Origin: Thermoanaerobaculia bacterium
GTDB taxonomy: Bacteria > Acidobacteriota > Thermoanaerobaculia > Multivoradales > UBA5704
DNA length: 52,197 bases
Assembly: GCA_030150965.1 (NCBI GenBank)
Contig: JASLEW010000394.1
Coordinates: forward strand, 1-52,197
Direction: 5' to 3'
Under the pieces are notes generated by a model. That model did not search any database and was not told the origin of the DNA. It was given only the letters and a program-made list of their open reading frames with translations. This document shows, one piece after another, positions 2,011-19,900 of the stretch (position 1 is the stretch's first letter; every line of letters starts with the position of its first letter). A program made the translations under genes and the position numbers.

Positions 2011-3339
2011 ATGAAGAGCCGCGGTATGGCAGCGTTCCTCGCCGTCTTGGCGGGGCAGGTGGTCTCCGCTCTGGGAACCGGTCTTAGCGGGTTCGCCCTC
2101 GGGGTGTGGGTATACCAGCGGACGGGCTCGGCGACACGGTTCGCCCTCATCACCTTGGTGACGACGCTGCCCGGCATTCTCCTGTCACCGATCGCGGGCG
2201 CGCTGGTGGACCGCTGGGACCGCCGCCGGGTGATGATCCTGAGCAACGTGGGCGCGGGGTGCACCACCCTGATCCTCGCGCTCCTGTTCTGGTACGACCG
2301 GCTGGAGCTCTGGCACATCTACCTCCTCCTGGCTCTCGGCTCGGCGTTCGGCACCCTTCAGTGGCCGGCCTTTTCCGCGGCAACGACCCTGCTCGTCCCC
2401 AAGGAGCACCTCGGGCGCGCCGCCGGCCTGACGCAGGCGGGGACAGCGGTCTCCGCGATCCTGGCCCCGGTGCTCGCCGGCGTTCTGGTGGTGAGGATCG
2501 GGCTCCAAGGGATCGTGCTCATCGACTTCGCGAGCTTCCTCGTAGCGATGGCTACTCTCCTGTGCGTCCAAGTGCCGCGCGCCGAGGTCACGGCGGAGGG
2601 ACTGGCGACCCGCGGCTCGCTACTGCGCGAGGCCGCATCGGGATGGTCGTACATCCGCCAGCGGCCGGGCCTCCTGTCGCTGCTGGGTCTGATCGCCGCG
2701 AGCAACTTCAGCGTGGGGATGATGCAGGTCCTGGTGACTCCGATGATCCTCTCCTTCACCTCGGCCGCCGTGCTGGGCCGCGTGCTGTCGGTGGCCGGGG
2801 CCGGCATGCTCGCCGGCAGTCTGCTGATAAGTGTGTGGGGCGGGCCCTCGCGGCGGGTCTTGGGCATCCTCGGCTTCATGATGCTTCAGGGCGCCATCCT
2901 CTTGGCTGGAGGGCTGTGGCCCAGCGCGATGCTCATTGCTGCGGCGGGGTTCGTGTTCCTGTTCACCGTGCCGATCATCCTCGGCTGCAGCCAGGCCCTC
3001 TGGCAGTCCAAGGTCGCGCCGGACCTGCAGGGACGGGTGTTCGCGGTGCGCAGGATGGTGGCCTGGTCGACCCTGCCGCTGAGCTACCTCATCACCGGGC
3101 CTCTGACGGACCGGGTCTTCGAGCCGCTGCTCGCGGTGAACGGCCCTCTCTCGGGCAGCGTCGGACGGCTCATCGGAGTGGGGAAGGGGCGGGGGAGCGC
3201 CCTGCTCCTCATCCTCCTCGGGATACTCGTCATGCTGACGGTCGCGGCGTTCTCCCGGTACTCCCGGCTGCGGCAGCTCGAGTCGGAGCTGCCGGACGTG
3301 CTACCGGAAACGTGGCTGGATCCAGTGGCGCAGACATAA
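2011..3339 (+). CDS. MFS transporter (EntS/MFS_3-like, 12-TM exporter type), first gene of the NRPS-PKS operon
   Basis: From ATG 2011: MKSRGMAAFLAVLAGQVVSALGTGLSGFALGVWVYQRTG...LPGILLSPIAGALVDRWDRRRVMI, the typical N-terminus of the enterobactin-exporter-like MFS family. Hydrophobic helices continue throughout. The gene ends 60 nt before the NRPS start. The track start at 1921 is a TTG-initiated extension without membrane character. Confidence 0.75.
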   Translation: MKSRGMAAFLAVLAGQVVSALGTGLSGFALGVWVYQRTGSATRFALITLVTTLPGILLSPIAGALVDRWDRRRVMILSNVGAGCTTLILALLFWYDRLELWHIYLLLALGSAFGTLQWPAFSAATTLLVPKEHLGRAAGLTQAGTAVSAILAPVLAGVLVVRIGLQGIVLIDFASFLVAMATLLCVQVPRAEVTAEGLATRGSLLREAASGWSYIRQRPGLLSLLGLIAASNFSVGMMQVLVTPMILSFTSAAVLGRVLSVAGAGMLAGSLLISVWGGPSRRVLGILGFMMLQGAILLAGGLWPSAMLIAAAGFVFLFTVPIILGCSQALWQSKVAPDLQGRVFAVRRMVAWSTLPLSYLITGPLTDRVFEPLLAVNGPLSGSVGRLIGVGKGRGSALLLILLGILVMLTVAAFSRYSRLRQLESELPDVLPETWLDPVAQT

Positions 3340-3398: not shown

Positions 3399-6300
3399 AT
3401 GCGGCCCAATAGCCTGACTGAGATCCTTCGAGCTCGCGGCACGGAGTGTGCCAGCCGGCGTGCCTTCCTTTTCCTCGACAACCAGGGGAACGAAGCCGCG
3501 GAGCTGAGCCTCGGCGAGATGGACCGGCGCTTCGATCCGGCTGCCATCCGAGCGCTCGTCGCCGCGGAGGCCGCGCGCGTCCTCGGTCTCGACCCCGGAA
3601 GGCTGAAGCCGGACTGCCCCCTCTCCGCGCTCGGACTGGACTCGCTGGCCGCTGTCGAGCTCAAGGCGGGACTGGAAGAGAAATCCGGTGTCTCCGTGTC
3701 GCTCACCCAGCTGCTCTCCGGGGCGAGCCTCGCGTCCGTCGCGGCGGAGGTGCTGGCGGGATCGGCGGTGCCGCGCCAGGTGCCGGAGTTGGAGATCGGG
3801 GCTCCTCTCGGCGACCATCCCCTCTCGGCAGGGCAGGAGGCTCTCTGGTTCTCCGACCGGCTGGCTCCGGAGGCCGCCGCTTACAATGTGGCGACGGCCG
3901 TCCACGTCGAGGGGGGACTCGACCCGGAAGCCCTGGGGCGCTCCCTCCAGGCTCTGGCCGACCGCCATCCGGCCCTGCGGACCACTTTCTTCTCTCAGCT
4001 CGGCGAGCCGCGCCAGATCGTTCACCAGCGCCTCGCCGTGGATTTCCGCGTCGAGCCATCGGGGTCGAAGGGGTCGGAGATCCCGCTCGTGGCCGAGGCC
4101 TACCGCCCATTCGATCTCGAAAACGAGTCTCTTCTACGGGTCCGGGTCTGGCCTCTGGAGGGCGGCGGCTGGCTCTTGCTCCTCGTCGTACACCATCTGG
4201 TGACCGATTTCTGGTCGCTCGGCCTCTTCGCCCGGGAGCTTGCAGCGCTCTATGGCGAGGCGACCGGCCAGGGAGCGGCGCGGCTCGCACCCCTGCAGCT
4301 CGGCTACACCGACTACGTCCGCTGGCAGGGCAACCTTCTTGCCGGGGAGCAAGGTGAGCGGCTCTGGGAGCACTGGCGCCAACAGCTCTCGGGAGATCTT
4401 CCCGTGCTGGAGCTGGTGACGGACCGTCCCCGTCCCGCCGTCCAGACATATATCGGCCTCTCCCGCGGCCTGCGCCTCGCGCCCGAGCTTGCGGACCGGC
4501 TGCGGGCGCTCAGCCTGGCTTCGGGAACGACGCTCTTCGTCACCCTTCTGGCCGGGTTCCAGGCTCTCCTTGGCCGTTGCACCGGACAGGATGAGGTCGT
4601 GATCGGCTCCCCCACGGCGGGCCGGGACGCCGCGCCCTTCCTGGGGGTGATGGGCTACTTCGTCAACCCGGTGGCGCTCCGCCTCTCCAGCGCAGGCGAT
4701 CCTGCCTGGCGCGATCTCCTGTCGTTTGCCAAGGCGGTTTGTCTCGCCGCATTCGAGCACCGGGATCTCCCCTTTGCCATCCTGGCCGAGCGGCTCCATC
4801 CCGAGCGGGACCCCAGCCGTTCCCCGGTTTTCCAGACGCTCTTCGCGCTCCACAAGGCGCAGCGGCCGGAGGAGAGGAGCCTGGCGGAGCTCGCCGCGGG
4901 AATAGGGAGGGCCCGGGTCACCCTGTCGGACCTCGAGCTCCTTGCCGTCCCCCTCGAGGAGTGCCGCTCTCCCTTCGACCTCACGTTGACGGCCGCCGAT
5001 GCCGAGGCGGGCCTCCCGATCGTCCTGCAGGTCAACCGCGACCTCTTCGATCCCGCTACGGCGGAACGCCTGGTGCGGGCTCTCGAGAATCTGCTGTACG
5101 CCCTGACCGAGGATCCCGATGCCCGAGTCTCCGCGGCCGAGATGCTCGGGGACGCGGAGCGCCGGCAACTCGCGGCCTGGAGCTGCACCACGGTCGAGCT
5201 GCCGCGCGGCCTCTGCCTGCCGGACCTCTTCGCCGCGCAAGCGGAGCGCACTCCGGAGCGAGAGGCCCTCGTCGCCGGCGGTGAGCATCTCACCTACCGA
5301 GAGCTGGGCCGTCGGGTGGAGATCCTGGGGCGGAGGCTTCGCCTCCTCGGCGTCGGACCGGAGAGCCGGGTCGGGGTCTCCGCCGGCCGATCGGCCGATC
5401 TGGTCGTCGCGCTTCTCGCGGTCCTGCGGGCAGGCGGCGCCTACGTGCCGCTCGACCCCATTCAGCCCACCGAGCGGCTCGCCTGGATGCTGCAGGACTC
5501 CGGGGCGAAGGTGTTGCTCGTCGAGGAGCGCCTCGCTCCAGGCCTGCTGGCAGCCGGGGTGCCCGCACACTGCCGCATCGTCTTGCTCGACCGCGTCGCG
5601 GACCTCAGCAGAGCCGAGGAGGGGATCCAGGGACGGCAAGATCCCATACTGCCCGGAAATCTCGCCTACCTGATCTATACCTCGGGATCCACGGGACGGC
5701 CGAAGGGAGTGGCGATCGAGCACCGGAGCGCGGTGACGCTCGTACAGTGGGCGCGGCAGGTCTTCACGGACGCCGAGCTGTCCGGGGTCCTCGCCGCCAC
5801 CTCGATCGGCTTCGACCTCTCGGTCTTCGAGCTTTTCGTACCCCTTTGCTGGGGTGGGCGGGTGATCCTGGCCGAGAATGCCCTGGCCCTCCCCGGACTG
5901 CCCGCGGCGGCAGAGGTGCGGCTGGTCAACACCGTGCCTTCGGTCCTCGCCGAGCTGGTCCGCGGGGAGGACGGGCTGGAGCTGCCGGGTTCGGTCACCA
6001 CCATCAACCTGGCCGGAGAGCCCCTGCCGCGCTCCCTGGTGCGGGCCATCCACGAGAAACACCCGGCGGCGCGGGTGCTCAACCTCTACGGCCCTTCCGA
6101 GGACACGACCTACTCGACGTTCGCCGTGGTCTCGCCGGACGGAGAGCTGCCGCCGGCCATCGGCCGGCCGATCGCCAACACCCAGGCCCATGTGCTGGAC
6201 CGGGCCAGACGCCAGGTGCCGGCCGGCATGCGGGGCGAGCTTCATCTCGGCGGAGAGGGTCTGGCGCGGGGCTACCATGGGCGGCCGGATCTCACGGCGG

Positions 6301-9300
6301 AGCGGTTCGTCCCGGACCCGTTCGCGACGGGAGCGCGGCTCTACAGGACCGGGGACCTGGCCCGCTGGCGGCCGGACAGGGAGCTCGAGTTCCTCGGCCG
6401 CATCGATCATCAGGTGAAGATCCGCGGCGTCCGCATCGAGCCGGCGGAAGTGGAATCGGCGCTGCTCTCGCGGCCGGGAGTGCGCGAGGCGGTGGTCCTG
6501 CCGCAGGGAGAGGGGAGCGACCGGCGCCTCATCGCCTATGTCGTCGCCGAGGCCGGTGCGGAGCTGGAGGGGGACGCCCTCCGCGAGTCGCTCCTCGGGC
6601 TCCTGCCGCGGGCCATGGTGCCCGCGGCGATCATGCCGGTCCCCGGCCTGCCGCTCACTCCGAACGGCAAGCTGGACCGCCGCGTCCTGGCGCGGCTCGC
6701 CCCGGAGCCATCGGCAGGTGCAGGAGCGGAGCCCGCGGCGCCGCGCTCACCGGTGGAGGAGCTGCTCGCCGGCATCTGGGCGGAGGTCCTCGGGGTCGAG
6801 CGGGTAGGGGCGGGAGACGACTTCTTCGCGCTCGGCGGGCATTCCCTTCTCGCTCTGCGCGTCCAGGCCCGGGTGCGCGAACGGCTCGGCGCCGAGCTGC
6901 CGCTCTCCGTGTTCTTTCAGCATCCCACGCTGGCAGCGCAGGCGCGGCGGCTCGCCGCCCGCAAGGTGGACGACCGCCCGCCGCTTCGTCCGTCGCCGCG
7001 GGAGCGGACCGTTTTTCCTCTCTCCTTCGCTCAGGAACGCGTCTGGTTCCTCGAGCGGCTCGAGCCGGGCACCGCGGTCTATCACATGGCCGGCAGCACC
7101 CGCCTGACCGGCCCACTCGATCTCGCGGCGTTACGCCGCGCGCTTTGCGAGCTCGAGGGGCGGCACGACGCCCTCCGCGCCCGGTTCCGGGAAGTAGACG
7201 AGATCCCGGTCCAGGAGATCGCCCCTGCGGAGCTGGACGGTCCGGAGTTGCTGGTCGTGTGCCTCGGGGGGTTGGAACCGGCGGTGCAGGAAGCCGAGGC
7301 GGAGCGTCTCACCAGCGACGAAGCCCAGCGCCCCTTCGATCTGGAGAACGGGCCGCCGTGGCGGCTCCTTCTCCTGCGCCGGGATCGCTGCCTTCACGAG
7401 CTCCTCATCACTCTGCACCACATCGCCGCCGATGAGGAATCGCTGGTGATCCTGGCGCGGGAGCTGGGCGCGCTCTATGCCGGCTTCCACAAGGGAAGGC
7501 CTCCCAGGTTGCCGGAGTTGCCGCTGCGCTCCGTTGACTTTGCCCTGTGGCAGAGGGAAGGGCTGGTTGGCGAGGTGCTGGAGAAGCGGCTCGCCTGGTG
7601 GCGGGAACAGCTGGCCGATCTCCCCGTCATCGAGGTGGCGGCCGACCGTCCTCGTACTGAGGCGCGGAGCTCCCGTGGAGATGTGGTCACCACCGTTCTC
7701 TCGCCGGCCCTCGCCGATGCCCTCGCTGCGCTGGGCCGCCGGGAGGGTGTCACGCTGTTCATGATGCTCCTCGCCGGCTTCCAGGTCATCCTGGAGCGGA
7801 TCGCTGGCGAGCCGGAGGTGCCGGTCGGCTGTCCGGTCGCCAACCGCGACCGCGAGCCGCTGCTCTCGGTGATCGGTTTCCTGGTCAACACCCTGGTCCT
7901 CCGAGCGAGCAGCACAGCGGCCCCAAGCTTCGGCGGATTCCTGCGGCGGGTGCGGGAGGTCACCGTCGAGACCTTCGAGCATGGTGATGTCCCGTTCGAG
8001 CTGCTGGTCCAAGCGCTCCAACCGGAACGGGCTCTCGGCCGCAACCCGCTCTTCGAGGTGGCCTTCGCGCTCCAGCGGCCACCCCGTGGCTGGCAGCTCG
8101 ACGATCTCGCCTTCGCGCCTCGGATCGTGCCGACCAGGACGGCCAAGTTCGCCCTCACCCTGTTCGGCATCGCAGAGGAGGGGAAGCTCTCGCTTCTCCT
8201 CGAGTACGCGACGGACCTCTTCGACCGGCCGACCCCGGCGCGCCTGCTGGGTTATCTCGAGACGCTGCTCGCCGCGGCGGCCGCGGAGCCTGCGCGCCCA
8301 CTCGCCGAGATCCCCTTGCTCGCTCCGGCGGAGCAGCAGGCGCTGATCCATCGTCCGGGAGCACGGCTCCTGCGCAAGGTGGCGAGGGCGCGCTTCCCGG
8401 AGAGTCCCGGGGGGGATGGGCCGCGCGTCCCGGCCGCTCCGCGGACTCCCACCGAGGAGCGGCTGGTCGAGGTCTGGGCCGGTGTGCTGGAACGCGGGCA
8501 GGTGTCGATCCACGACGACTTCTTCAGCCTCGGTGGTCATTCGCTCCTGGCCTCTCGGGTCGTGGCACGGATCCGCAAGTCCCTGGGCGTCGACCTGCCG
8601 CTCTCGATCCTCTTCACCTGTCCGACCATCGCGCGACTGGCCGCCGAGGTCGACCGCGCGCGCCGCGCCTCGGATGCGGGCGTGACGGAGGTAGAGCGGG
8701 TGCCGACACCCCTCGCCTGCCGCTGGGAGGACGGCTCCGCCCCACCGCTTTCTTTTGCCCAGGAGCAGCTCTGGTTCATCGACCAGCTGGAGCCGGGGAG
8801 CCCGGTTTACAACCTATCCACCGCCGTATGCCTCGATGGGGCTCTCGACCGCAATGCCCTGCGCAGGGCTCTGGCCCAGGTCGTCGAGCGCCACACGGTC
8901 CTCCGCACGACCTTTCGCGCCTTCGCGGGGCGACCGGTCCAGGTCGTGGCGCCGCATTTCCTCCCCATCCTGCACGAGATCGATCTCCTGGATCTCGCTC
9001 CCGGAGTGCGGCAGGACGAGGCGGCGCGCCATGTGGCGGCCTGGGCGCTCGCCCCCTTCGACCTTGCCGCAGGCCCCCTCTTCCGCGCCGCTTTGCTGCG
9101 GCTGGGCGAGAGCAGCCACCTCCTGCTTGTCACCTTCCATCACTCCATCGCCGATGGCTGGTCGTTGCGTATCTTCTATGAAGAGCTCGGGGCGCTCTAC
9201 GCGGCAGTCCATGGGGAGGTGCCGGTCCTCCCGGCGCTGCCGATCCAATACGCCGACTTCGCCGCCTGGCAGCGTGAGCGGCTTCGCGGCGGCGTGCTCA

Positions 9301-10784
9301 AGCGCCTGATCGCCTACTGGCGGCAGCGGCTGGCCGGTGCTCCCGCTGCTCTCGACCTGCCGTTCGACCGTCCGCGTCCGCCGGTCCAGACCTACGGCGG
9401 CACCTCACAACTCCTGGAGATCGGCATCGGGGCCACGCAGGCCCTCCGTACCTTCGTCCGCGACGAGAGCGCAACCCTCTTCATGACGCTCATCGCCGCC
9501 TGGGCGACCCTCCTGCACCTGCTGAGCGACGAGGAGGACGTGATCCTGGGGACTCCCACGGCCAACCGCTCGCTCCCCGAGCTCGAGCCGCTCATCGGCT
9601 TGTTCGCCAACACCATCCCCCTGCGCGTCGATCTCTCGGGAGATCCGACGTTCCGCGAGCTCGTCGGACGGGTCCGGACCGCGGCGCTGGCCGACTTCGC
9701 CCATCAGGAGATGCCGTTCGAGAAGCTCGTCGAGGAGCTGAGGCCCGAACGCGACCTCAGCCACCATCCGATCTACCAGGTGGTCTTCGCGCTCGAGACG
9801 TCGTCCCGGCCGGACTTCCTGGACCTCTCCGGCCTGCGGATGGCGCCGCTGCCTCCGACCGAGGGGACGGCGAAGTTCGACCTCGCCCTCTACATGGACG
9901 ACCGCGGCGGCCGGCTCGCCGGTCTGTTCGAGACGAACCGCGATCTTCTCGACCGCAGCACGGCCGCGCGCTGGCTCGGACATTTCACGGCCCTCGCCGC
10001 GGCGGGGGCGGGAGATCCGGCGCGGCGCCTCTCGGAGCTGCCGCTGCTCGCGCCGGCCGAGCAGCTCGAGCTCCTCAGCCGCGCCGGTGAGCGGGTGAAG
10101 GTCCGCGGCTACAGGATCGATCCCCGGATCGTCGAGGCCTCCCTCGCCGGCCATCCGGCGGTCGCCTCCGCGGTGCTGATCCGGCGCGCCGATCCGCCCG
10201 GGGAGGAGCGGCTCGTCGCCTATGTGACGGTGCGGCCGGAGGGCTCGGCTCCCGGCGCGGGAGAGCTGCGCTCGTTTCTCGCCGGGCGCCTGCCCGAGTA
10301 CATGCTGCCCGGCGCGTTCGTCGTCCTCGCCGATCTGCCACGGACCGCCGGCGGTGAGCTCGACCTGGGCGCCCTGCCCGTGCCGCAGGAGAAGGCCGAC
10401 CTCGGCGGCGACCCCATGGCGCCGAAATCGCCGGATGACGGGGCCGACGGTGCGGGGAGGATCGTCGCCGAGATCTGGCAGGAGCTCCTGGAGGTCGAGA
10501 AGGTCGAGCTGCGCGACAACTTCTTCGCTCTCGGCGGGCACTCGCTCCTGCTTCTCCCATTGCAGGAGCGCCTGCGCGAGAGGTTCGGAGTCAGCCTGCC
10601 GGTCGTCGAGCTGTTCAAGTTCCCGACCGCGGGCGCGCTCTCCGCACACCTGGCTGCGAGGACGGCTGCGGAAGCCCCCCGTCCCCCCGAGAAGACCCTG
10701 GACCGCGTCGAGGCTGTGCGCCAGGGCCGCGAGCGGCTGAAGCGGCGCGCGGAGCGGAATGCCCGAAAGACAGGAGCGAGGTGA
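3399..10784 (+). CDS. Non-ribosomal peptide synthetase A: FAAL stub - ACP - C-A-T - C-T - C-(A C-terminal subdomain only)-T
   Basis: Domain order read from motifs. FAAL-like N-terminal stub (aa 1-45). ACP (LGLDSLAAVELK, Ser codon 3642). C (HHLVTDFWS, ~4191). A (LAYLIYTSGSTGRPKGV ~5661; NLYGPSEDTTY; YRTGDLARW; PNGKLDRRVL). T (FFALGGHSLLAL, Ser 6843). C (HHIAADEES, ~7417). T (FFSLGGHSLLAS, Ser 8541). C (FHHSIADGWS, ~9137). A8-A10 remnant (VKVRGYRIDP...LPEYMLP, ~10081-10385). T (FFALGGHSLLLL, Ser 10542). Confidence 0.9.
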   Translation: MRPNSLTEILRARGTECASRRAFLFLDNQGNEAAELSLGEMDRRFDPAAIRALVAAEAARVLGLDPGRLKPDCPLSALGLDSLAAVELKAGLEEKSGVSVSLTQLLSGASLASVAAEVLAGSAVPRQVPELEIGAPLGDHPLSAGQEALWFSDRLAPEAAAYNVATAVHVEGGLDPEALGRSLQALADRHPALRTTFFSQLGEPRQIVHQRLAVDFRVEPSGSKGSEIPLVAEAYRPFDLENESLLRVRVWPLEGGGWLLLLVVHHLVTDFWSLGLFARELAALYGEATGQGAARLAPLQLGYTDYVRWQGNLLAGEQGERLWEHWRQQLSGDLPVLELVTDRPRPAVQTYIGLSRGLRLAPELADRLRALSLASGTTLFVTLLAGFQALLGRCTGQDEVVIGSPTAGRDAAPFLGVMGYFVNPVALRLSSAGDPAWRDLLSFAKAVCLAAFEHRDLPFAILAERLHPERDPSRSPVFQTLFALHKAQRPEERSLAELAAGIGRARVTLSDLELLAVPLEECRSPFDLTLTAADAEAGLPIVLQVNRDLFDPATAERLVRALENLLYALTEDPDARVSAAEMLGDAERRQLAAWSCTTVELPRGLCLPDLFAAQAERTPEREALVAGGEHLTYRELGRRVEILGRRLRLLGVGPESRVGVSAGRSADLVVALLAVLRAGGAYVPLDPIQPTERLAWMLQDSGAKVLLVEERLAPGLLAAGVPAHCRIVLLDRVADLSRAEEGIQGRQDPILPGNLAYLIYTSGSTGRPKGVAIEHRSAVTLVQWARQVFTDAELSGVLAATSIGFDLSVFELFVPLCWGGRVILAENALALPGLPAAAEVRLVNTVPSVLAELVRGEDGLELPGSVTTINLAGEPLPRSLVRAIHEKHPAARVLNLYGPSEDTTYSTFAVVSPDGELPPAIGRPIANTQAHVLDRARRQVPAGMRGELHLGGEGLARGYHGRPDLTAERFVPDPFATGARLYRTGDLARWRPDRELEFLGRIDHQVKIRGVRIEPAEVESALLSRPGVREAVVLPQGEGSDRRLIAYVVAEAGAELEGDALRESLLGLLPRAMVPAAIMPVPGLPLTPNGKLDRRVLARLAPEPSAGAGAEPAAPRSPVEELLAGIWAEVLGVERVGAGDDFFALGGHSLLALRVQARVRERLGAELPLSVFFQHPTLAAQARRLAARKVDDRPPLRPSPRERTVFPLSFAQERVWFLERLEPGTAVYHMAGSTRLTGPLDLAALRRALCELEGRHDALRARFREVDEIPVQEIAPAELDGPELLVVCLGGLEPAVQEAEAERLTSDEAQRPFDLENGPPWRLLLLRRDRCLHELLITLHHIAADEESLVILARELGALYAGFHKGRPPRLPELPLRSVDFALWQREGLVGEVLEKRLAWWREQLADLPVIEVAADRPRTEARSSRGDVVTTVLSPALADALAALGRREGVTLFMMLLAGFQVILERIAGEPEVPVGCPVANRDREPLLSVIGFLVNTLVLRASSTAAPSFGGFLRRVREVTVETFEHGDVPFELLVQALQPERALGRNPLFEVAFALQRPPRGWQLDDLAFAPRIVPTRTAKFALTLFGIAEEGKLSLLLEYATDLFDRPTPARLLGYLETLLAAAAAEPARPLAEIPLLAPAEQQALIHRPGARLLRKVARARFPESPGGDGPRVPAAPRTPTEERLVEVWAGVLERGQVSIHDDFFSLGGHSLLASRVVARIRKSLGVDLPLSILFTCPTIARLAAEVDRARRASDAGVTEVERVPTPLACRWEDGSAPPLSFAQEQLWFIDQLEPGSPVYNLSTAVCLDGALDRNALRRALAQVVERHTVLRTTFRAFAGRPVQVVAPHFLPILHEIDLLDLAPGVRQDEAARHVAAWALAPFDLAAGPLFRAALLRLGESSHLLLVTFHHSIADGWSLRIFYEELGALYAAVHGEVPVLPALPIQYADFAAWQRERLRGGVLKRLIAYWRQRLAGAPAALDLPFDRPRPPVQTYGGTSQLLEIGIGATQALRTFVRDESATLFMTLIAAWATLLHLLSDEEDVILGTPTANRSLPELEPLIGLFANTIPLRVDLSGDPTFRELVGRVRTAALADFAHQEMPFEKLVEELRPERDLSHHPIYQVVFALETSSRPDFLDLSGLRMAPLPPTEGTAKFDLALYMDDRGGRLAGLFETNRDLLDRSTAARWLGHFTALAAAGAGDPARRLSELPLLAPAEQLELLSRAGERVKVRGYRIDPRIVEASLAGHPAVASAVLIRRADPPGEERLVAYVTVRPEGSAPGAGELRSFLAGRLPEYMLPGAFVVLADLPRTAGGELDLGALPVPQEKADLGGDPMAPKSPDDGADGAGRIVAEIWQELLEVEKVELRDNFFALGGHSLLLLPLQERLRERFGVSLPVVELFKFPTAGALSAHLAARTAAEAPRPPEKTLDRVEAVRQGRERLKRRAERNARKTGAR

Positions 10785-10799
10785 AGCAGGAGCTGATCC

Positions 10800-13700
10800 A
10801 TGGAGCAGGACATGAATGAGCCGAAGGTCGAACAGCTCGAACGGACGGACATGGAGGGGATCGCCGTCGTCGGCATCGCCGCCCGATTCCCGGGCGCACG
10901 CAACGCCGCCGAGCTGTGGCGCAACCTGCGTGACGGGATCGCATCGATCTCGTTCTTCAGCGAGGAGGAGCTGGCCGCGGCCGGAGTGGAGCCCGCGCTG
11001 CTGGCCGATCCACGCTACGTGCGGGCCAAGGGCTCCCTGGAGGACGCGGACCTCTTCGACGCAGCCCTCTTCGGCCTCACGCCGCGCGAGGCCGAAACCA
11101 TGGATCCCCAGCACCGGATCTTCCTGGAGTGCGCCTGGGAGGCGCTGGAGGATGCGGCTTGCGATCCGGAGCGCTTCGGGGGCCGCATCGGCGTCTGGGC
11201 CGGCTCGGGCTTCAGCTCCTACCTCCTCTCGAATCTCCTGCCCAACCAAGAGAGGATGGAGGGCTTCGGCGCCCTCCAGGTGGCGCTCCTCAACGACCGC
11301 GACTTCCTCGCCACGAGGGCCTCGTACCAGCTGAACCTCAAGGGACCCAGCGTGTCGGTCCAGACCGCCTGCTCGACCTCGCTGGTGGCAGCTCACATGG
11401 CCTGCCAGGGCTTGATCGGGGGCGAGTGCGACATGGCGCTCGCCGGGGGCGTCTCGATCAGCGCGCCGCTGCGCACGGGCTACCTGTACCAGGAGGGGAG
11501 CGTGCTCTCGCCGGACGGCTGCTGCCGCGCCTTCGACGCCGCCGCGGCCGGCACCGTGGAGGGGAACGGCTGCGGAGTCATCGTCCTGAAGCGGCTTGAC
11601 GACGCCCTGGCCGACGGCGACCGCATCTATGCGGTGATCCGCGGCTCGGCGGTGAACAACGACGGCTCGGCCAAGATCGGCTTCACCGCGCCCAGCGTGG
11701 AGGGGCAGGCCTCGGCCATTTCCGAGGCCCTGATGACGGCCGGGGTCGATCCCGGGACGATCGGCTACGTCGAGGCCCATGGCAGCGGCACGCCGCTCGG
11801 CGATCCCATTGAGATTGCGGCGCTCACCAAGGCTTTCCGCGCGGCGGGAGCCGAGGGCATGGGCTTCTGCGCCATCGGATCGATCAAGACCAACCTGGGC
11901 CATTGCAACACGGCAGCGGGCGTGGCCGGGCTCATCAAGGCCGTCCTGGCGCTGGCGCACGGGACTCTGCCACCCAGCCTCCACTACGAGAGCCCCAACC
12001 CGCAGATCGACTTCGCCGGCAGCCCCTTCTATATCTGCACAGAGGCGCGGCCGTGGACCACCGATGGAGGGCCGAGGCGGGCCGGCGCGAGCTCGTTCGG
12101 CCTGGGCGGGACGAACGCCCACGCCGTGCTGGAGGAAGCGCCCGAGCAGGAGCCGGGCGATCTCCCCTCCCGGCCGGCACAGCTCCTGGTTCTTTCGGCC
12201 CGCACCCCGGCGGCGCTCGACGCGGCGGCGGCCCGGCTGGCGGACCACCTGGAGGCGAATCCGGACGCCGACCTCGCCGACATCGCGTGGACCCTCCAAG
12301 TCGGGCGCAAGGAGCTCGAGCACCGCCGGATCGCCGTGGCCCGCGACCGCGAGTCCGCCAGCTCCGCGCTCAGGGACCGTGCCCCCGCCGCCGTCACCGG
12401 CAAGCAGGAGGGCGCATGGTCGAGGCCGGTGGTGTTCCTCTTCCCAGGGCTCGGCGACCAGCACGTGGACATGGCCCGGGAGCTCTATGAGACCGAGGCG
12501 CTCTTCCGCGGGCAGGTCGACCTTTGCGCCTCCAAGCTCCAGTCCTGGCTGGGCGCCGACCTGCGCGAGGTGCTCTTTTCGCCCGGCGAGTGGTCGCTGC
12601 CCGCCAAGGCAGCCCCGGACCTGCGCACCATGCTCCGCCGCTCCGCGGAGACCTCGCGCCTCCACGAGACCCTGTTCGCGCAGCCGGCCTGCTTCGTGGT
12701 CGAGTACGCCCTGGGCCGTCTGTTGATGGACTGGGGGATCGTGCCCCGGGCCCTGATCGGCTACAGCCTCGGCGAGTACGTGGCGGCATGCTTGTCGGGA
12801 GCGCTCTCCCTGGACGATGCCCTGGAGCTGGTGGCGCGGCGGGCGAAGTTGATCCAGGCCCTCCCCGGGGGAGCCATGCTTGCGGTGCCCTTGCCCGAGG
12901 AGGAGATCCGGCTGCTGCTGGGGGAGGGCCTGTCCCTCTCCGCTACCAACGGCCCGCATTTCTGTGTGGTGGGAGGGACCGGCGAGGCGGTGGATACGCT
13001 GGACCGGCAACTGGCCGGGCGCGGCGTGAGCTGCCTCCGGCTGCGCACCACGCACGCGTTCCACTCCGCGCTGATGGAGCCGGCCGTGGCTCCCTTCACC
13101 AAGATCGCGTGCAAGGTGCGCATGCAGGCGCCGGAGATCCCCTTTGTCTCCAACGTCACCGGCACCTGGATCACCGCGGACGACCTCGCCGGCCCCGCCT
13201 ACTGGGCGCGGCACCTGCGCCATCCCGTACGCTTCGCGGAGGGCATCGGCGAGCTGCTCCAGGAGCCCGAGCACGTTTTCCTGGAGGTCGGCCCGGGCGC
13301 GACCCTGGGCACGCTGGTCAAGCAGCACCCGGCTGCCGTGGCCAACCGGGTCACGGTCCCGACTCTGCGCGCCGGGGGCTCCGATCTGGAGACCCTGCTG
13401 GAGGCCGTGGGCCGGCTGTGGATCGCGGGGACCCACGTGGACTGGGCCCGCTTTCACGGCGGCGAGCGCCGCCTCAAGGCGCGGCTGCCGACCTATCCCT
13501 TCGAGCGCCAGCGCCACTGGATCGATCCGTCGAAGGACTCGGCGAAACCCGCGGCGGCGGCCGGTCCCGCGGCCGGCCTCGCGGACTGGTTCTGGGTCCC
13601 AGCCTGGAAGCAGGTGCCGCGCATGGCCGGCCTCCGGGAGGCCCTCCGCTGGCTGGTCTTTCTGGATGAAGCAGGGCTGGGAGAGAGAATCGCGGCGCGG

Positions 13701-15461
13701 CTGCGTAAGGACGGCCACCAGGTCGTTACCGCGAGGCGTGGCGCCGCCTTCGAGGAGATCGGGGAGGGTGCGTTCACGATCCATCCCGCCCGCCGGCAGG
13801 ACTACGACGCGCTGCTCCGTGGCAGGCCGCCCGGGAAGATCCTCCACCTCTGGGGGATCACGTCCGCGGAGCCCTCCTTCGCGGCGGCGCAGACGGCGGG
13901 GCTCGTCAGCCTGACGCTGTTGACGCAGGCCCTCTCGGTCGTCGAGAGCGATGCTCAGATCCGGCTCACCGTCGCGACCAACGGTCTCCACGAGCTGGTG
14001 GACGGCGATCCGATCCATCCCGGCAAGGGCACGCTTCTCGGAGCCCTGAAAGTGTTCCACCAGGAGCTGCCGCGCCTGACCTGCTCCAGTGTCGACGTCG
14101 CGCTCTCCGCAGTCGCGGAAGACCGCCTCGTGGAACAGCTCCTGGCCGAGAGTTCCGGTCCGGCGGAGACGGTCGTGGCCCTGCGGGGCCGCCAGCGTTG
14201 GGTCCGTGGCTTCGAGCCGATGCGTCTCGCCGAGGAGGGGTCGAGGCTCGCCGAGGAGGGTGTCTACCTGATCGCCGGTGCCGCGCATGGTCCCGGCATG
14301 GCGATGGCCGAGCATCTGGTGCGCTCGGGAGCCCGGGTCGGGCTGGTCCTGCCGCCGCAGCTACCGGCACGGGAGCAGTGGGAGACCTGGAAGGAGCTGC
14401 CTGAGCTGCCGGGAGGGCAGGACGTGATCGGTGCCGTCATCCTGCGGCTCCTGGCGATCGAGCGTGAGGTGGGGCTCGACCGGGTCCTGATCCTGCGCTC
14501 GGACCCGGGAGCGGCCCTCACCGAGACCCGCGCCCGCTTCGGCCCGATTCATGGCGTCTTCTTCACCGGCGGCATCTTCGCCGGCGGCCTGATCCAGCTC
14601 AAGGCTCCGGAGGCCCTGCAGACAGCCCTGGCGCCGCTGGCCCGGGAGGCCGAGGCGCTCCTCGATGCCGTGGACGCCGAGCCCGAGCCGCCTTCCTTCG
14701 TCATGCTGTCTTCCACCGTGATCGCCGTCACGGGCGGCCTGGGCCAGCTCGAGGTTGCCGCAGCCGGTGGGTTCCTGGAGGCGCTCGCCGCGCGGCGTCA
14801 TGCGGAGGGGAAGCCATTCACCGTGGCTGCGCACTGGGATGCTTATCAGTGGGGTGGCTGGCTCGTGACCGGGGTGGCCGGCGCCATGTCCGGCTTCACT
14901 CCGGAAGCGGTGCAGGCGAATCTGGCGACGTACGGCATCTCGGAGAATCAGAGCGCCGGCGCGATGCGGCGGCTCTTGGCGAGCTCCCTGCCCCGGGTGA
15001 TTGTCTCCGCCCAGGACCTCCCCCGTCTGATGGCAGCCGCGGACAGCGTCACCGCGGACACCCTGCTGGCCCAGATGGCGCCGGCCCGCCACGGAGAAAG
15101 GGCGCAGCGGCCGGGGCTCTCGACCGCCTATGAGCCGCCGCAGGACGAGCTCGAAGAGAGCCTCGCCGGCATCTGGCAGGACCTCCTCGGCATCGAGCCC
15201 ATCGGCCGGGACGACAGCTTCCTGGAGCTGGGCGGCCATTCACTCCTCGCCATCCAGACCGTCACGCAGATCCGGAGCGTTCTGAAGGTCGACCTGCCGG
15301 TGACCACGCTCTTCGAGTCACCGACGGTCACGAAGCTGGCCAAGGTTGTGCGCCGAGCTCGCGGCCAGGGTACCCCCGTGAACGTGGAGGCGCTGCTCGC
15401 CCTGGTCGAGGGGCTCTCCCCCGCCGAAGCCGCGCAGAAGCTCGCGGAGCTGGGGGGCTGA
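10800..15461 (+). CDS. Type I polyketide synthase module: KS - AT (malonyl-type) - KR-like (probably inactive) - carrier
   Basis: AGGAG (10788-10792) lies 7 nt before ATG 10800. KS: IAVVGIAARFPGA, TACSTSLVA (Cys codon 11370), EAHGSGTPLGDPIE, GSIKTNLGHCNTAAG. AT: FLFPGLGDQH, GYSLGE (Ser codon 12765), HAFHS. KR-like region ~13540-14900. Carrier: FLELGGHSLLAI (Ser codon 15240). Confidence 0.9.
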   Translation: MEQDMNEPKVEQLERTDMEGIAVVGIAARFPGARNAAELWRNLRDGIASISFFSEEELAAAGVEPALLADPRYVRAKGSLEDADLFDAALFGLTPREAETMDPQHRIFLECAWEALEDAACDPERFGGRIGVWAGSGFSSYLLSNLLPNQERMEGFGALQVALLNDRDFLATRASYQLNLKGPSVSVQTACSTSLVAAHMACQGLIGGECDMALAGGVSISAPLRTGYLYQEGSVLSPDGCCRAFDAAAAGTVEGNGCGVIVLKRLDDALADGDRIYAVIRGSAVNNDGSAKIGFTAPSVEGQASAISEALMTAGVDPGTIGYVEAHGSGTPLGDPIEIAALTKAFRAAGAEGMGFCAIGSIKTNLGHCNTAAGVAGLIKAVLALAHGTLPPSLHYESPNPQIDFAGSPFYICTEARPWTTDGGPRRAGASSFGLGGTNAHAVLEEAPEQEPGDLPSRPAQLLVLSARTPAALDAAAARLADHLEANPDADLADIAWTLQVGRKELEHRRIAVARDRESASSALRDRAPAAVTGKQEGAWSRPVVFLFPGLGDQHVDMARELYETEALFRGQVDLCASKLQSWLGADLREVLFSPGEWSLPAKAAPDLRTMLRRSAETSRLHETLFAQPACFVVEYALGRLLMDWGIVPRALIGYSLGEYVAACLSGALSLDDALELVARRAKLIQALPGGAMLAVPLPEEEIRLLLGEGLSLSATNGPHFCVVGGTGEAVDTLDRQLAGRGVSCLRLRTTHAFHSALMEPAVAPFTKIACKVRMQAPEIPFVSNVTGTWITADDLAGPAYWARHLRHPVRFAEGIGELLQEPEHVFLEVGPGATLGTLVKQHPAAVANRVTVPTLRAGGSDLETLLEAVGRLWIAGTHVDWARFHGGERRLKARLPTYPFERQRHWIDPSKDSAKPAAAAGPAAGLADWFWVPAWKQVPRMAGLREALRWLVFLDEAGLGERIAARLRKDGHQVVTARRGAAFEEIGEGAFTIHPARRQDYDALLRGRPPGKILHLWGITSAEPSFAAAQTAGLVSLTLLTQALSVVESDAQIRLTVATNGLHELVDGDPIHPGKGTLLGALKVFHQELPRLTCSSVDVALSAVAEDRLVEQLLAESSGPAETVVALRGRQRWVRGFEPMRLAEEGSRLAEEGVYLIAGAAHGPGMAMAEHLVRSGARVGLVLPPQLPAREQWETWKELPELPGGQDVIGAVILRLLAIEREVGLDRVLILRSDPGAALTETRARFGPIHGVFFTGGIFAGGLIQLKAPEALQTALAPLAREAEALLDAVDAEPEPPSFVMLSSTVIAVTGGLGQLEVAAAGGFLEALAARRHAEGKPFTVAAHWDAYQWGGWLVTGVAGAMSGFTPEAVQANLATYGISENQSAGAMRRLLASSLPRVIVSAQDLPRLMAAADSVTADTLLAQMAPARHGERAQRPGLSTAYEPPQDELEESLAGIWQDLLGIEPIGRDDSFLELGGHSLLAIQTVTQIRSVLKVDLPVTTLFESPTVTKLAKVVRRARGQGTPVNVEALLALVEGLSPAEAAQKLAELGG

Positions 15462-16912
15462 TGAGCGTCGCCGACCGCCTGTCCTCCTTGAGCCGGGAGC
15501 AGCGGGCCCTGTTCGAGCGGCTGCTGCAGCAGCAGAGCCGCCCGGTGGCCCGAACTCCGCCGCCGGTACGTTCGGTCTCCGGCCCGTCCGGCGTCGGCGA
15601 CTGGCCTCTCTCCTTCGACCAGGAGCGAGTCCTGCAGCTCCACCGGGACCATCCCGGTCTGGTCGCCTGGAACGTGGATGTGGGCAGCCACGTCATGGGC
15701 GAGCTGGATGTCCCTCTGTTCCTGGCCGCCTGCCGCGAGCTCGTCCGCCGGCACGCGGCTTGGCGCACCACGTTTCCGGTCGTGGATGGCCGTCCCGTGC
15801 AGCGGGTCCATCCCTGGGTGGAGCCCGGGACCTGCGTGATCGACCTGAGCGAGTTGCCGGCGGCGAGGAAGGAGGAGACCGGGCACGCGGCCCTCTACGA
15901 GCACACGCGAAACCCGTTCGACCTGGAGGTGGGACCGCTTCTGCGCATCGCGCTGGTGCGGCTCGCCCGGCGGGAGCATCTGTATCAGGTGACGATCCAT
16001 CACACGGTCACGGACTGGATCGCCTATCAGATCTTCTTCCAGGAGCTGCTCGCCCTGTACGAGGCGTTCCGCGCCGGCCGTCCCTCGCCGCTGCCGCCGC
16101 CGCCCGTGCAGTTCCCCGACTTTGCCGTGTGGGAGCGGGAGTGGCTCCAGGGGGAGGTGCTGGACGAAGAGGCCCGCTTCTGGCGCCGGGAGCTGGAGGG
16201 CTTCCCCCTGGTGCTGGACCTGCCGGCGAGCCGCCCCCGTCCGCCGGTGCAGAGCCAGCGGGGTGGGCTCCTGCGCATCGCGGCCGGGTCCGGGCGCACG
16301 GACCGCCTGCGAGCTCTGGCGCAGAAGGAGGGGGGCACCATGTTCATGGCGGTGCTGGCCGTCCTCAACGCGCTCGTGCGGGACCTCACCGGGCGGGACA
16401 GAATCGTGATCGGCTCGAACAGCGCCAACCGGCCCCGGCCGGAGCTGGCGGGGGTGGCCGGCTTCTTCCTCACCCAGGTGCCCTTCGCGACGGAGGTGTC
16501 GGGAGATCCCACGTTCCGCGAGCTGCTCGCCCGCACGAGGCGAACGGCCCTGGCGGCCTATGCTCACCAGAACCTGCCGTTCACCAAGCTGATCGAAGCG
16601 CTTGGGCTGGAGCCCGACCCGAGCCGTTACCCGGTCGTGCAGGTCCTCCTTCTGGTCCTGGAGGGGCAGAGTCGGGGTCGGTCCGGGAACCTGGAGTTCC
16701 GGCCGGTGTGGATCTCCGACGGCAACTCCCGCTGGGACCTCGCGATCGTCCTCTACGACTACCACGACGTCGGCCTCACCGGCGCCCTGGAGTACAACGC
16801 GGACATCTTCGATGCCCGGGACGCCGAGCGGCTGGTCGGTCGGTTTCTCTCGATCCTCGATGCCGTGGCCGCCGACCCCGACGTCCACCTGTCCGGTCTG
16901 GAGCCCGGATGA
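15461..16912 (+). CDS. Free-standing NRPS condensation-domain protein
   Basis: 483 aa. WPLSFDQERVLQLH at the N-terminus, active-site-type IHHTVTDWIAY, and a later C-domain block GSNSANRPRPELAGVAGFFLTQVPF. The start overlaps the PKS stop by 1 nt (TGATG), and its stop overlaps the next start (ATGA). Confidence 0.8.
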   Translation: MSVADRLSSLSREQRALFERLLQQQSRPVARTPPPVRSVSGPSGVGDWPLSFDQERVLQLHRDHPGLVAWNVDVGSHVMGELDVPLFLAACRELVRRHAAWRTTFPVVDGRPVQRVHPWVEPGTCVIDLSELPAARKEETGHAALYEHTRNPFDLEVGPLLRIALVRLARREHLYQVTIHHTVTDWIAYQIFFQELLALYEAFRAGRPSPLPPPPVQFPDFAVWEREWLQGEVLDEEARFWRRELEGFPLVLDLPASRPRPPVQSQRGGLLRIAAGSGRTDRLRALAQKEGGTMFMAVLAVLNALVRDLTGRDRIVIGSNSANRPRPELAGVAGFFLTQVPFATEVSGDPTFRELLARTRRTALAAYAHQNLPFTKLIEALGLEPDPSRYPVVQVLLLVLEGQSRGRSGNLEFRPVWISDGNSRWDLAIVLYDYHDVGLTGALEYNADIFDARDAERLVGRFLSILDAVAADPDVHLSGLEPG

Positions 16913-19900
16913 GCGTCACCGTCACCGACCGCCTGGCGGCTCTCGCTCCCGAGCAGCGAGCCCTGTTCGAAAGGCTGCTGGAGAAGGAGCTCGAGGACGC
17001 GCGCATCCACCAGCCGGCTCCTCCGATCCTGCCGGTGCCGCGAGACCGTGACCTTCCTCTCTCCTTCTCCCAGCAACGACTCTGGCTCATCGACCAGATC
17101 GAGCCGGGCAGCCCGGCGTACAACATCCCGCAGGTCCTGCGTCTGGTTGGTGAGATCGAGCCCAGCTTGCTGCAATGGATCTTCTCCGAGATCGTCCGCC
17201 GGCACGAGTCGCTGCGCACGACGTTCGTCTCTCGGCAGGACGGTCCCGTGCAGGTGATCGCCTCTCCGGAGCCGCTCGCTCTCTCGCTCCTCGATCTTTC
17301 TCACCTACCCGAGAAGGAACGCGAATCTCAGGCGCGGGATCTCGCGTTGGCCGAGGCCAGGCGCCCGTTCGACCTCCAGCGGGGTCCGCTGCTGCGCCTG
17401 CTCCTGGTGCGCCTGATCGAGAGACACCACCTCCTGCTCCTGACCATGCACCATATTGTCGCGGATGGCTGGTCCATGGGCATCCTGGTCCGCGAGATCA
17501 TGGCACTTTACACGGCGTTCGCCGAGGGCAGACCGTCGACCCTGCCGGAGCTGCCGGTACAGTACGCGGATTTTGCGGTGTGGCAAGCCTCCTGGTTGCA
17601 GGGCGAGGTCCTGGCGAGCGAGATCTCCTTCTGGAAACGGCAGTTGGCGGGATTGCCGCCACTCTTGGAGCTGCCCACCGACCGGCCACGTCCGGCGGCG
17701 CAGACCTTCCGTGGCGCCACCCAGCCGTTTCATCTCGAGTCTGGCTCCGCGGACGCTGTGCGCGAGCTGTGCTGGCGCGAAGAAGCGACCCCCTTCATGG
17801 TCCTGCTCGCCTCCTGGGCGGCCCTGCTGGGGCGCCATGCGGGACAGGACGACGTGGTCATGGGCGCACCGGTTGCCGGGCGCAACCGGCGGGAGATCGA
17901 AGGATTGATCGGGTTCTTCGTCAACACCCTGGTCCTGCGATCGGATCTGTCCGGAGATCCGAGCTTCCGTGAGTTGCTGCACCGAGTGCGCCAGGCGTCC
18001 CTCGACGCCTTTGCCCACCAGGATCTCCCCTTCGAGCGGATCGTCGAGGAGATCGGGGTCGAGAGAAACCTGGCGATCTCTCCGCTCTTTCAGGTGCTCT
18101 TCATTTTTCAGAATGTCCCGGTGGGGAATCTCACCGTGCCGGGGCTGGCGCTGTCGCAGGTCGACGTGGACGCAGGCCTCGCGAAATTCGATCTCTCCCT
18201 GTCCCTGACTGACACCGGGGCCGGGTTTTCGGGCGCTCTCGAGTTCGCCACGGACCTGTTCGATTCAACGACCATGGACCGGCTTCAGGACCACTTCCGG
18301 ACCCTGCTGGCAAGCGCCATGTCCGATCCGCAACGGCGCTTGGCGGAGCTGCCTTTGCTGGCGAACGGCGAGCTGCATCAGATCCTTTGGGAATGGAACG
18401 ATGCTCCAGGTCGGGACGGGTCTTCGTGCGTCCACCACCTCATCGAGACGCAGGCGCGTCGGAGGTCGGAGCTGGCGGCCGTTCTGACCTCGGAGGGGGT
18501 GGAGATCTCCTATGGCGAGCTCGACCGGCTGGCAGACAGGCTCGCGTCGAGACTGCGCGCGCTCGGTGTGCTGCCGGACGACAGGGTCGGCGTCTGTCTG
18601 CATCGGGGCTGGGAAGGAGCCGTGGTCTTGCTCGCTATCCTGAAGGCGGGTGGCTGCTATCTGCCTCTCGACCCGGCCTACCCGCGCGAGCGATTGGGAT
18701 TCATGCTGTCTGACGCTGCGGCGCCAGTGATCGTGACGCGCGACGGATTGGTCGAAGCCCAGCCTGTGCAGGGCGTCCGCCTGCTCTCGCTCGATGACTT
18801 CTGGGAGGGCGATCGGCCTCGCGAGGAGAGGAGAGGAGATCTCCCCGTGGTGGATCTCAACCACCTGTCCTACATCATCTACACCTCCGGCTCGACAGGC
18901 CAGCCCAAGGGGGTGGCTCTGCCGCACCGCACACTGGCCAATCTGATCGCTTGGCAGATCACCGCCTCGGCAGTACCCGCGGGGCGGACCCTCCAATTCG
19001 CCTCGCCGAGCTTCGACGTGTCGCTGCAGGAGACGCTCGCAACCTGGGCCGCGGGGGGCACGCTGGTCCTGCTGTCCGAGGACGACCGCCGAGATGCCGA
19101 AGCCGTGCTGCGCCGCTTGCGCGGAGCGCGCGTCGAGCGCCTGTTCCTGCCGTTCGTCGCCCTCCAGCAGATCGCCGAGGCAGCCGCCCGCGCCGACGCG
19201 CTTCCCCCCCTGCGGGAGGTGGTCACCGCGGGCGAGCAGCTCCAGATGACTCCCGAGGTACGTGCCTTCTTCTCGCGCCTTCCCGGCTGCGTGTTGCGCA
19301 ACCAGTACGGGCCGTCCGAGACCCATGTGGTGACCGAGTCTTCGCTGTGGAACGAGCCGCACGGAGAGGTGGAGGAGTGGCCTGCCCTGCCGTCCATCGG
19401 GCGCCCCATCGCCGGCACCGAGGTCCATCTGCTGGATTTTCGGGGCGAGCTGGTCCCGATCGGAGCCCCAGGGGAGATCTATCTGGGAGGCCGGGGGCTG
19501 GCGCGCGGCTACCTGGGCCGTCCGGACCTGACCGCCGCGCGGTTCCTCCCCGATCCATGGGGTAGCCAGGGTGACCGGCTCTATCGAACCGGGGATCTGG
19601 CACGCCGCAGCCGCTCGGGCGAGATCGAATTCCTGGGCCGCATCGACCACCAGGTCAAGATCCGCGGATTCCGGGTCGAGCCGGGGGAGATCGAGGCGGC
19701 TCTGGCCGAGCACCCCAGCGTGCGTCAGGCCGTGATCGCCGTCCGGGAGGATCTCCCCGGCGGGCGTGGGCTGGTGGCGTTCGTGGTGCCGGACGGCGAG
19801 CCCGTGCCCGCTGTCGCCGAGCTGCGGCAGCTCCTGCGCGAGCGTCTGCCGGAGTTCATGGTGCCCGGCCACCTGGCCTTCCTCGACCGGCTGCCGGTCA

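Follow-up and report, generated by a model that had tools for sequence, protein, structure and literature searches.

A vestigial adenylation subdomain in the third module of a Thermoanaerobaculia nonribosomal peptide synthetase and the possible loading of this module in trans

The third module of NRPS-A

The window analyzed here, a stretch of 52,197 nucleotides (nt) covering positions 1 to 52,197 of contig JASLEW010000394.1 (NCBI GenBank assembly GCA_030150965.1) from a Thermoanaerobaculia bacterium, contains a hybrid nonribosomal peptide synthetase (NRPS)-polyketide synthase (PKS) gene cluster. One of the synthetase genes, NRPS-A (3399-10784, forward strand), is a single open frame of 2461 amino acids (aa), as seen from the open reading frame with its translation, from Pfam matches and from a 93% aa-identical orthologue in G002, a sister species of the same genus with a genome of 3 contigs; the genome of the window itself, G000, is a metagenome-assembled genome (MAG) of 999 contigs. 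In the third module of NRPS-A the condensation (C) and the carrier (T) domain are separated by a short segment at 10065-10403. On balance, and jointly with the history of loading in trans discussed below, we interpret this segment as a vestigial, catalytically dead C-terminal subdomain (Asub) of the module-3 adenylation (A) domain, left after stepwise in-frame deletions of the core. The module contains the following features.

8745-10076, forward strand: condensation domain C3 (Pfam Condensation, aa 1783-2226), with the canonical motif HHSIADGWS at 9138-9164
10035-10064, forward strand: end of the C domain and C-A linker, ELPLLAPAEQ, the left side of the junction (translation; the motif also precedes intact A domains in relatives)
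10065-10403, forward strand: vestigial Asub (Pfam AMP-binding_C, aa 2245-2319, nt ~10131-10355; AlphaFold, Foldseek, and the ratio of nonsynonymous to synonymous substitution rates, dN/dS)
10065-10121, forward strand: motif A8, LELLSRAGERVKVRGYRID
10290-10310, forward strand: motif A9, LPEYMLP
10338-10385, forward strand: degenerate motif A10, PRTAGGELDL, and the LPVP turn, PRTAGGELDLGALPVP
10356-10358, forward strand: codon GAG of Glu2320, at the position of the invariant A10 lysine (K, R, E, G or deleted in relatives)
10404-10457, forward strand: A-T linker, predicted to be disordered and evolving neutrally (predicted local distance difference test, pLDDT; dN/dS; a 9-nt indel between G000 and G002)
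10458-10655, forward strand: carrier domain T3 (Pfam PP-binding), with the phosphopantetheine Ser2382 in GGHS, codon at 10542

Between C3 and T3 there is no Pfam match to an AMP-binding core, and the C-A linker runs directly into A8. Lacking both the A1-A7 core and the A10 lysine (PxxxxGKxDR), the remnant cannot adenylate; the predicted Asub fold is what remains of a functional domain. With C3 (HHSIADGWS) and T3 (GGHS) intact and the A domain dead, the module is of the A-less elongation type. It is not of the interrupted-A-domain type, as it contains no inserted domain and its A8-A10 region spans about 100 residues, as in a normal Asub, the core being absent. The first-pass annotation of this DNA had described an in-frame loss of the A core and a crippled remnant at 10050-10390. 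These coordinates cover the feature, the whole of which occupies 10065-10403, and the description is borne out by the AMP-binding_C match without a core and by the replacement of Lys by Glu. Its reading of A8, A9 and A10 stands for the motifs and the lost lysine, but not for the left boundary: LELL before SR, which it had placed in the C-A linker, aligns at the DNA level with LEVL of LEVLGR in the relative G017 and is thus part of A8, so that the remnant holds a complete A8. The motif assignments in module 3 are sound, since the intact A1 of the same protein shows the same motifs in full (LEFLGRIDHQVKIRGVRIE ... TPNGKLDR).

The domain order of NRPS-A is a stub of a fatty acyl-AMP ligase (FAAL), an acyl carrier protein (ACP), C1-A1-T1, C2-[A7 scrap]-T2 and C3-[dead Asub]-T3; in Pfam terms it has three Condensation and four PP-binding domains and a single AMP-binding core (aa 611-960). 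C1-C3 and T0-T3 all retain their catalytic motifs. Translation and Pfam matches agree with the earlier description of the FAAL stub (aa 1-45) and of the A-less module 2, as well as with the statement that three ANL-type domains of NRPS-A are affected while the frame stays open. The features concerned are listed here.

3399-3533, forward strand: N-terminal FAAL stub, aa 1-45, fused in frame to the starter ACP (translation; a full FAAL is present in the relatives G010 and P0157)
5229-6713, forward strand: A1, the sole intact adenylation domain of NRPS-A (Pfam AMP-binding, aa 611-960; A3, A7, A8 and A10, TPNGKLDR, present; dN/dS of 0.38 between G000 and G002)
8349-8396, forward strand: module-2 leftover HRPGARLLRKVARARF, about 16 residues, a scrap of the A7 region, Asub absent (alignment with RHPGARLYRTGERVRFRSDG of P0157)

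The active-site motif of C2 (7416-7442) reads HHIAADEES rather than HHxxxDG. As G010, whose module 2 keeps its A domain, has HHIAADETS, this variant is a family trait and not a sign of decay.

Relatives, repeated trimming and selection

The window comes from a 999-contig MAG and NRPS modules are repetitive, hence a collapse between repeated modules might have removed the A core during assembly, a point raised by the first-pass annotation. However, the G002 orthologue, from a different species with a 3-contig genome, shares its C-T and C-Asub-T order and its junction with the window, at 93% protein identity over the full 682-aa query and 96-98% DNA identity. The junction of P0010, an independent ENA contig, is the same as in the window, related junctions are present in more than ten further assemblies, and no repeat longer than 28 nt occurs in 7000-10800. 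An identical junction in independent assemblies is not an assembly artefact, and a collapse can be taken as excluded for all practical purposes.

Searches of protein collections revealed homologues of the C3-(A remnant)-T3 unit in at least 13 protein clusters, from Thermoanaerobaculia wherever a name was given; in the search of representative proteins, the ranking of which was dominated by giant multi-module NRPSs, two matches with one contiguous stretch were used. A PKS module follows the unit in every relative with readable context. The homologues form a decay series of A3. In G010, where FAAL and A2 are intact, the start of a normal A3 (LLVEANDT...LTYGELNRRANQLAHRL) is seen at the point where the contig ends; the comparison with orthologues thus yields a relative with an intact A2 and an intact visible N-terminal part of A3. 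P0157 and G017 lack A1-A5 and keep A6-A10, the A10 lysine being retained in P0157 and replaced by Arg in G017. P0253 keeps A5-A8, the body of its Asub being deleted. Nine others, the window among them, have A8-A10 only, with differing junction sequences and with Lys, Arg, Glu or Gly at the A10 lysine position, or A10 missing. About ten different junctions are found among the relatives, and the deletions are nested and stepwise. The P0253 remnant between C3 and T3 (locus L036) is of the opposite type, with ARIRG joined to RVDREALP.

Maximum-likelihood trees of C3 and of Asub+T3 are concordant and place the G000/G002/P0010 clade as sister to P0157, followed by G017 (support 100/99 in the C3 tree; 90/90 and 85/91 in the Asub+T3 tree). 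Since both P0157 and G017 keep A6-A10, the loss of A6-A7 in the G000 clade is independent of that in a six-member clade and in P0058/P0159. Together the two trees point to a minimum of three independent trimmings to A8-A10, with the A10 lysine lost several separate times, and the recurrence of A-domain loss, which had been suggested from the window alone, holds at the level of the family. From the DNA alignment of LELLSR in G000 with LEVLGR of the G017 A8, the last deletion, counted from a G017-like state, measured 273 nt and was in frame. A 10-bp direct repeat (GCCGAGCGGC) flanking the deleted segment in G017 was considered as its source and rejected: the two copies lie in different frames and cannot have produced the in-frame joint of G000. 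The module upstream in G017 was also rejected as an orthologue of module 1 or module 2, its identities of 35-65% being too low, so that orthology between G000 and G017 holds only from C3 onward.

A further claim, that the cores of modules 2 and 3 were excised precisely and at the same junction, did not survive the comparison. The string LLxPAE(R/Q)xxL precedes intact A domains too (ELPLLSPAELQQVREWG and ELPLLGLAERHQLLVEAND in G010, ELPLLTPAERRQLLAWN in P0058) and is an ordinary end-of-C/C-A linker motif. The right ends differ, module 3 keeping A8-A10 and module 2 keeping the A7 scrap with no Asub, and no extended DNA repeat links the two junctions. In an alignment with the sister protein P0157 the leftover HRPGARLLRKVARARF falls on the A7 region, PGARLYRTGERVRF; this rejects an origin from A10, which had also been considered for the 25 residues that follow C2. 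Module 2 has a decay series of its own, with A2 intact in G010, P0058, P0159 and P0253 and a piece of A5/6-A7 without Asub in P0157, P0164, P0167, P0170 and P0204. The FAAL was cut differently in the two closest genomes, in frame with aa 1-45 kept in G000, and after 13 codons, with an out-of-frame joint to the FAAL C-terminal subdomain, in G002. Judged from these alignments, the loss of A domains is recurrent but not precise, and proceeds by nested deletions. The G002 FAAL (locus L011, ~6370-6440) retains its start codon and 13 codons, MRPNSLIEIFRAE, which run out of frame into the C-terminal subdomain at GELVVTGRLKDL..., and the long frame can start only at an internal GTG.

The NRPS-A genes of G000 and G002 differ at 268 nucleotides in 7251 aligned positions. 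None of these substitutions created a stop, against 6.6 expected under neutrality (P = 0.0013), no frameshift was found, and the sole indel is an in-frame 9-nt difference in the A-T linker. Values of dN/dS, calculated by the Nei-Gojobori method (NG86), were 0.25 for C1, 0.38 for A1, 0.37 for C3 and 0.30 for T2 between these two genomes. Six deeper pairs, formed by G000, G002, G017 and P0058 (dS 0.4-0.7), gave 0.29-0.41 for C3 (0.29 against G017 over 438 codons; 0.30-0.41 over the end of C3), 0.30-0.51 for T3, and 0.42-0.59 for the Asub stub (p = 0.002-0.047 against 1). The A-T linker, used as an internal neutral control, gave about 0.9-1.7 in five of the six pairs and 0.30 in the sixth. By these ratios C3 and T3 are under purifying selection, and selection acts on the whole module and on NRPS-A as well; constraint on the stub is weaker than on the domains around it, yet not absent.

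The stub is also predicted to retain the Asub fold. An AlphaFold model built with an 8-row alignment shows an A8 hairpin, a helix, two long strands, a helix and a strand, with a block-mean pLDDT of 70-90 for the stub, followed by a disordered A-T linker (pLDDT below 50 at model residues 123-137) and by T3 as a four-helix carrier domain. In Foldseek comparisons the modelled stub superposes on the Asub of CytC1, PheA, Txo2 and others over about 95-103 residues with a root mean square deviation of 1.3-2.2 A. The LPxP turn, which ties Asub to the carrier domain, is retained as LPVP.

Loading of the module and the fate of its adenylation domain

In P0157, P0162, P0253 and G002, NRPS-A is preceded by a divergent arm of genes coding for a free half-C-A-T protein (877-908 aa), a B12-binding radical SAM enzyme, a methyltransferase-like protein, a type II thioesterase (TEII) homologue and a 4HBT protein, the latter two facing NRPS-A. 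The half-C-A-T protein consists of the C-terminal half of a C domain, without the HHxxxDG lobe, a complete A domain and a T domain, and by its domain content is itself a truncated former module. It was considered as a relocated A2 or A3 and rejected as such, being merely 35-40% identical to any module of the family. Among 41 related genomes, it is found only in G000, G002 and G017, exactly those with a crippled module (3/3 versus 0/38), and G010, with its intact start of A3, has neither a half-C-A-T nor an orthologous thioesterase. The TEII homologue stands beside NRPS-A in G002, P0157, P0162, P0164, P0170 and P0253. In P0164 and P0170 at least the thioesterase and the 4HBT gene are seen, the contig of P0164 ending 3.3 kb upstream, after both. 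An 898-aa gene at the arm position beside P0170 was examined as a possible half-C-A-T and proved unrelated. The half-C-A-T genes are located at L028 12935-15637 (G002), L029 6798-9812 (contig C148 of G000) and L023 2378-5104. In the half-C-A-T of G017 (C325, 2892-5534) one search showed no internal stop, and another with slightly wider bounds included one TGA, maybe a stop close to the end or a sequencing error.

RifR matches the thioesterase over its full length (E = 1e-41), with GHCLGA at the nucleophile lying over GHSMGA of RifR (Ser94) and with the Asp and His kept, so that the triad is Cys-Asp-His. By its sequence the enzyme is a candidate for acyl or aminoacyl transfer rather than for proofreading hydrolysis. 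A Cys nucleophile is also used by the aminoacyl shuttles SyrC and CmaE. Genes of the Cys-thioesterase are found at L011 3448-4200 (G002), L034 3180-4046 (contig C442 of G000) and L023 8753-9508.

The explanation of the remnant toward which we lean, by analogy with known trans-loaded modules, is that module 3 is loaded in trans and its Asub is vestigial. In an ancestor of the Thermoanaerobaculia NRPS-PKS family, service in trans would have made the module-3 A domain dispensable, and the useless core would then have been eroded independently by lineage. The free half-C-A-T would activate an amino acid and load its own carrier domain; the neighboring B12-radical-SAM and methyltransferase-like enzymes may modify the amino acid there; and the TEII-like Cys enzyme would move it onto T3, perhaps also onto T2. 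C3 would condense it with the upstream chain, and T3 would pass the product to the ketosynthase of the PKS. Tailoring on the free carrier prior to transfer would explain why an A domain in cis was redundant or even harmful. The compact Asub before T3 survived in most lineages, probably as a folded spacer or tether positioning T3, tolerated or weakly selected, and not catalytic. A more specific proposal, which we put forward only tentatively, is that the dead Asub is a selected non-catalytic adaptor: after the switch to loading in trans by a free A-T protein and a Cys-thioesterase shuttle, the core would have been trimmed to the core/Asub hinge independently in separate lineages, and the subdomain of about 100 residues with its LPxP turn would position T3 for the C3 acceptor site or dock the shuttle. 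If true, C-Asub*-T would be a recurrent module type in its own right, and would offer a natural guide to removable A cores.

Several observations weigh against this explanation. The window has no helper arm, its homology to G002 stopping 10 nt before a gene of the major facilitator superfamily (MFS), and the only half-C-A-T (contig C148) and the only Cys-thioesterase (contig C442, GHCLGA) of G000 are paralogues, 63% and 77% identical, respectively, to those of G002. No half-C-A-T was found within 10 kb of P0170 or P0058, and the half-C-A-T might supply a different building block. Asub is not indispensable, since P0253 lost it instead and module 2 lost it in every remnant. Finally, between G000 and G002 the dN/dS of NRPS-A is 0.49 for the whole gene and about 1.4-1.6 for the stub (on 11-12 changes, NG86 being rough on ~100 codons at 70% G+C), and G000 has 83 private amino-acid changes against 60 and 38 in two close relatives. 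The left border of the homology is as follows.

1921-3339: MFS gene
1990-2010: synteny break, G000-G002 homology beginning ~10 nt before the MFS start codon

Upstream of the MFS gene G000 has glmM, and G002 has the five-gene arm (L011 1-4750, L028 12935-15637); the glmM/MFS joint is either a real rearrangement or a mis-join in the MAG. G000 does possess a second cluster of the family (C442/L034 and C148/L029), split over short contigs, with the radical SAM, methyltransferase-like, Cys-thioesterase and 4HBT genes followed by an NRPS with an ACP at its start and without a FAAL. Four possibilities are left: the lineage of the window may borrow the paralogous helpers, rely on A1 or be impaired, or else the left joint may be an error of MAG assembly.

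Use of A1, iteratively or in trans, for loading T1, T2 and T3, with the stub as junk, is an alternative explanation. At least nine members of the family have exactly one intact A domain per three carrier domains, the motifs of A1 are intact with a dN/dS of 0.38, the window lacks the arm, and loading of this kind is known for CmnA-A1 and CmnI of capreomycin (PMC12400406). We nevertheless think it rather unlikely as an account of the remnant, given that P0253, P0058 and P0159 have a crippled A3 despite the presence of other A domains, P0253 still having the half-C-A-T/thioesterase arm, that the half-C-A-T and the crippled module are found in exactly the same genomes among the 41, and that the pocket motifs of A1 and A2 in G010 differ (FDLSVFE and FDAAVWE). 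The best PDB hit of A1, LgrA module 2, was discarded as a guide to its specificity; the same entry is the top hit of the unrelated half-C-A-T, so that the hit says nothing on this matter.

Decay of the cluster in the window genome, the stubs being early pseudogenisation and module 3 no longer working, is distinctly improbable in our view, even if parts of the picture fit it. Three ANL domains are crippled, G000 and G002 lost parts of the FAAL independently, the latter with an out-of-frame joint, the helper arm is missing, and G000 carries the most private substitutions. The closest pair also gives the ratios quoted above for the gene and the stub (1.4 at the lower figure), together with 3.5 for the module-2 linker (on 9 changes), and the two remnants pooled differ from the rest of the gene (Fisher p = 0.009). 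On the other hand, 7.2 kb contain no stop or frameshift despite 268 substitutions (P = 0.0013) and only one indel, in frame; in both G000 and G002 the PKS and NRPS-B genes downstream have open frames; the catalytic motifs are undamaged in C1-C3 and T0-T3; the architecture is kept in many species with dN/dS of 0.3-0.5 for C3 and T3; and the private changes of G000 at conserved sites are mostly conservative. The dN/dS comparison foreseen by the first-pass annotation as a sign of pseudogenisation thus has a mixed outcome, with the remnant looking relaxed in the closest pair G000-G002 but being not neutral in the deep pairs, nor is the gene as a whole.

Comparison with known systems and the rest of the cluster

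A-less modules loaded in trans by a free A-T protein and a shuttle are known, e.g., SyrE module 9 with SyrB1 (A-T) and SyrC, CmaA/CmaE/CmaD, and WS22/WS23 with the TEII-like WS5/WS20 in WS9326A biosynthesis (PMC8748450, PMC8949500); LgnA/LgnD is a further example, and the logic is established for syringomycin, coronamic acid, WS9326A and legonindolizidine biosynthesis (PMC8748450, PMC8949500, PMC7539972). The family described here resembles these systems in having a C-...-T module without a working A domain and, in relatives, a free A-T protein and a TEII-like alpha/beta-hydrolase adjoining the synthetase; tailoring genes (radical SAM, methyltransferase-like) adjoin the free A-T of relatives as SyrB2 does SyrB1. 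In contrast to the SyrB1/SyrC-type systems, a folded dead Asub stays between C and T, the free protein has half a C domain before A-T, and the family belongs to Acidobacteriota, the window copy lacking the helper genes. By its alignment with RifR, the shuttle candidate is classed as a RifR-type TEII with a Ser-to-Cys replacement rather than as a SyrC or CmaE homologue.

In albicidin/cystobactamid, ramoplanin and enduracidin synthetases, a full-length inactive A domain is complemented by a stand-alone A-T (PMC8949500). The cis A domain is dead here as well and its role may likewise be filled in trans; unlike those full-size dead domains with degenerate motifs, about 400 core residues are deleted and A8-A10 are left. 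One intact A domain with three carrier domains in one protein is a feature shared with HMWP2 of yersiniabactin and with capreomycin CmnA-A1, which loads CmnI (PMC12400406), but those have neither an A-domain remnant nor a dedicated arm of free A-T and thioesterase. The X domain of glycopeptide synthetases, a degenerate C domain retained as a platform for recruiting P450 enzymes (PMC8949500), is similar in being a dead piece of an NRPS domain kept in frame and conserved; its new function has been demonstrated, whereas the spacer role of the Asub stub is putative.

Modules without an A domain or with a dead one that are served in trans are therefore already known. No description of a C-Asub-T module was found in the part of the literature covered, a weak negative, and a module with only a folded inactive Asub, as well as a natural series of its dismantling, is apparently undescribed. 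If our reading holds, the family would be a natural experiment on which parts of the A domain NRPS modules can lose, the breakpoints clustering at the C-A linker and the A8 hinge, i.e., the sites used for engineered subdomain and exchange-unit swaps. It would also provide a candidate new trans-loading set (half-C-A-T and Ser-to-Cys TEII) in uncultured Acidobacteriota of the class Thermoanaerobaculia. To our knowledge, the natural products of Thermoanaerobaculia are essentially unknown. For annotation, AMP-binding_C matches without a core call for caution, as they are easily misread as complete A domains or as pseudogenes.

Downstream of NRPS-A the cluster continues with the following genes, behind which lie a B12-radical-SAM gene and a MacB-type transporter.

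10800-15461, forward strand: PKS module KS-AT-KR-ACP, receiving the chain from T3 (Pfam)
15461-16912: lone C protein
~16909 to 30480: NRPS-B, (C-A-T)x4-TE

The tail of NRPS-A after T3 (10690-10784) is shorter in G000 and G002 than in the relatives and is devoid of the conserved GRGRFxEARRRV...EExAD, presumed to be the dock for the PKS. The lone C gene and NRPS-B overlap via ATGA at ~16909-16912. The N-termini of their products (encoded at 15461-15540 and 16909-16990) are near-identical, MSV..DRL..L..EQRALFERLL, a docking-type head in common.

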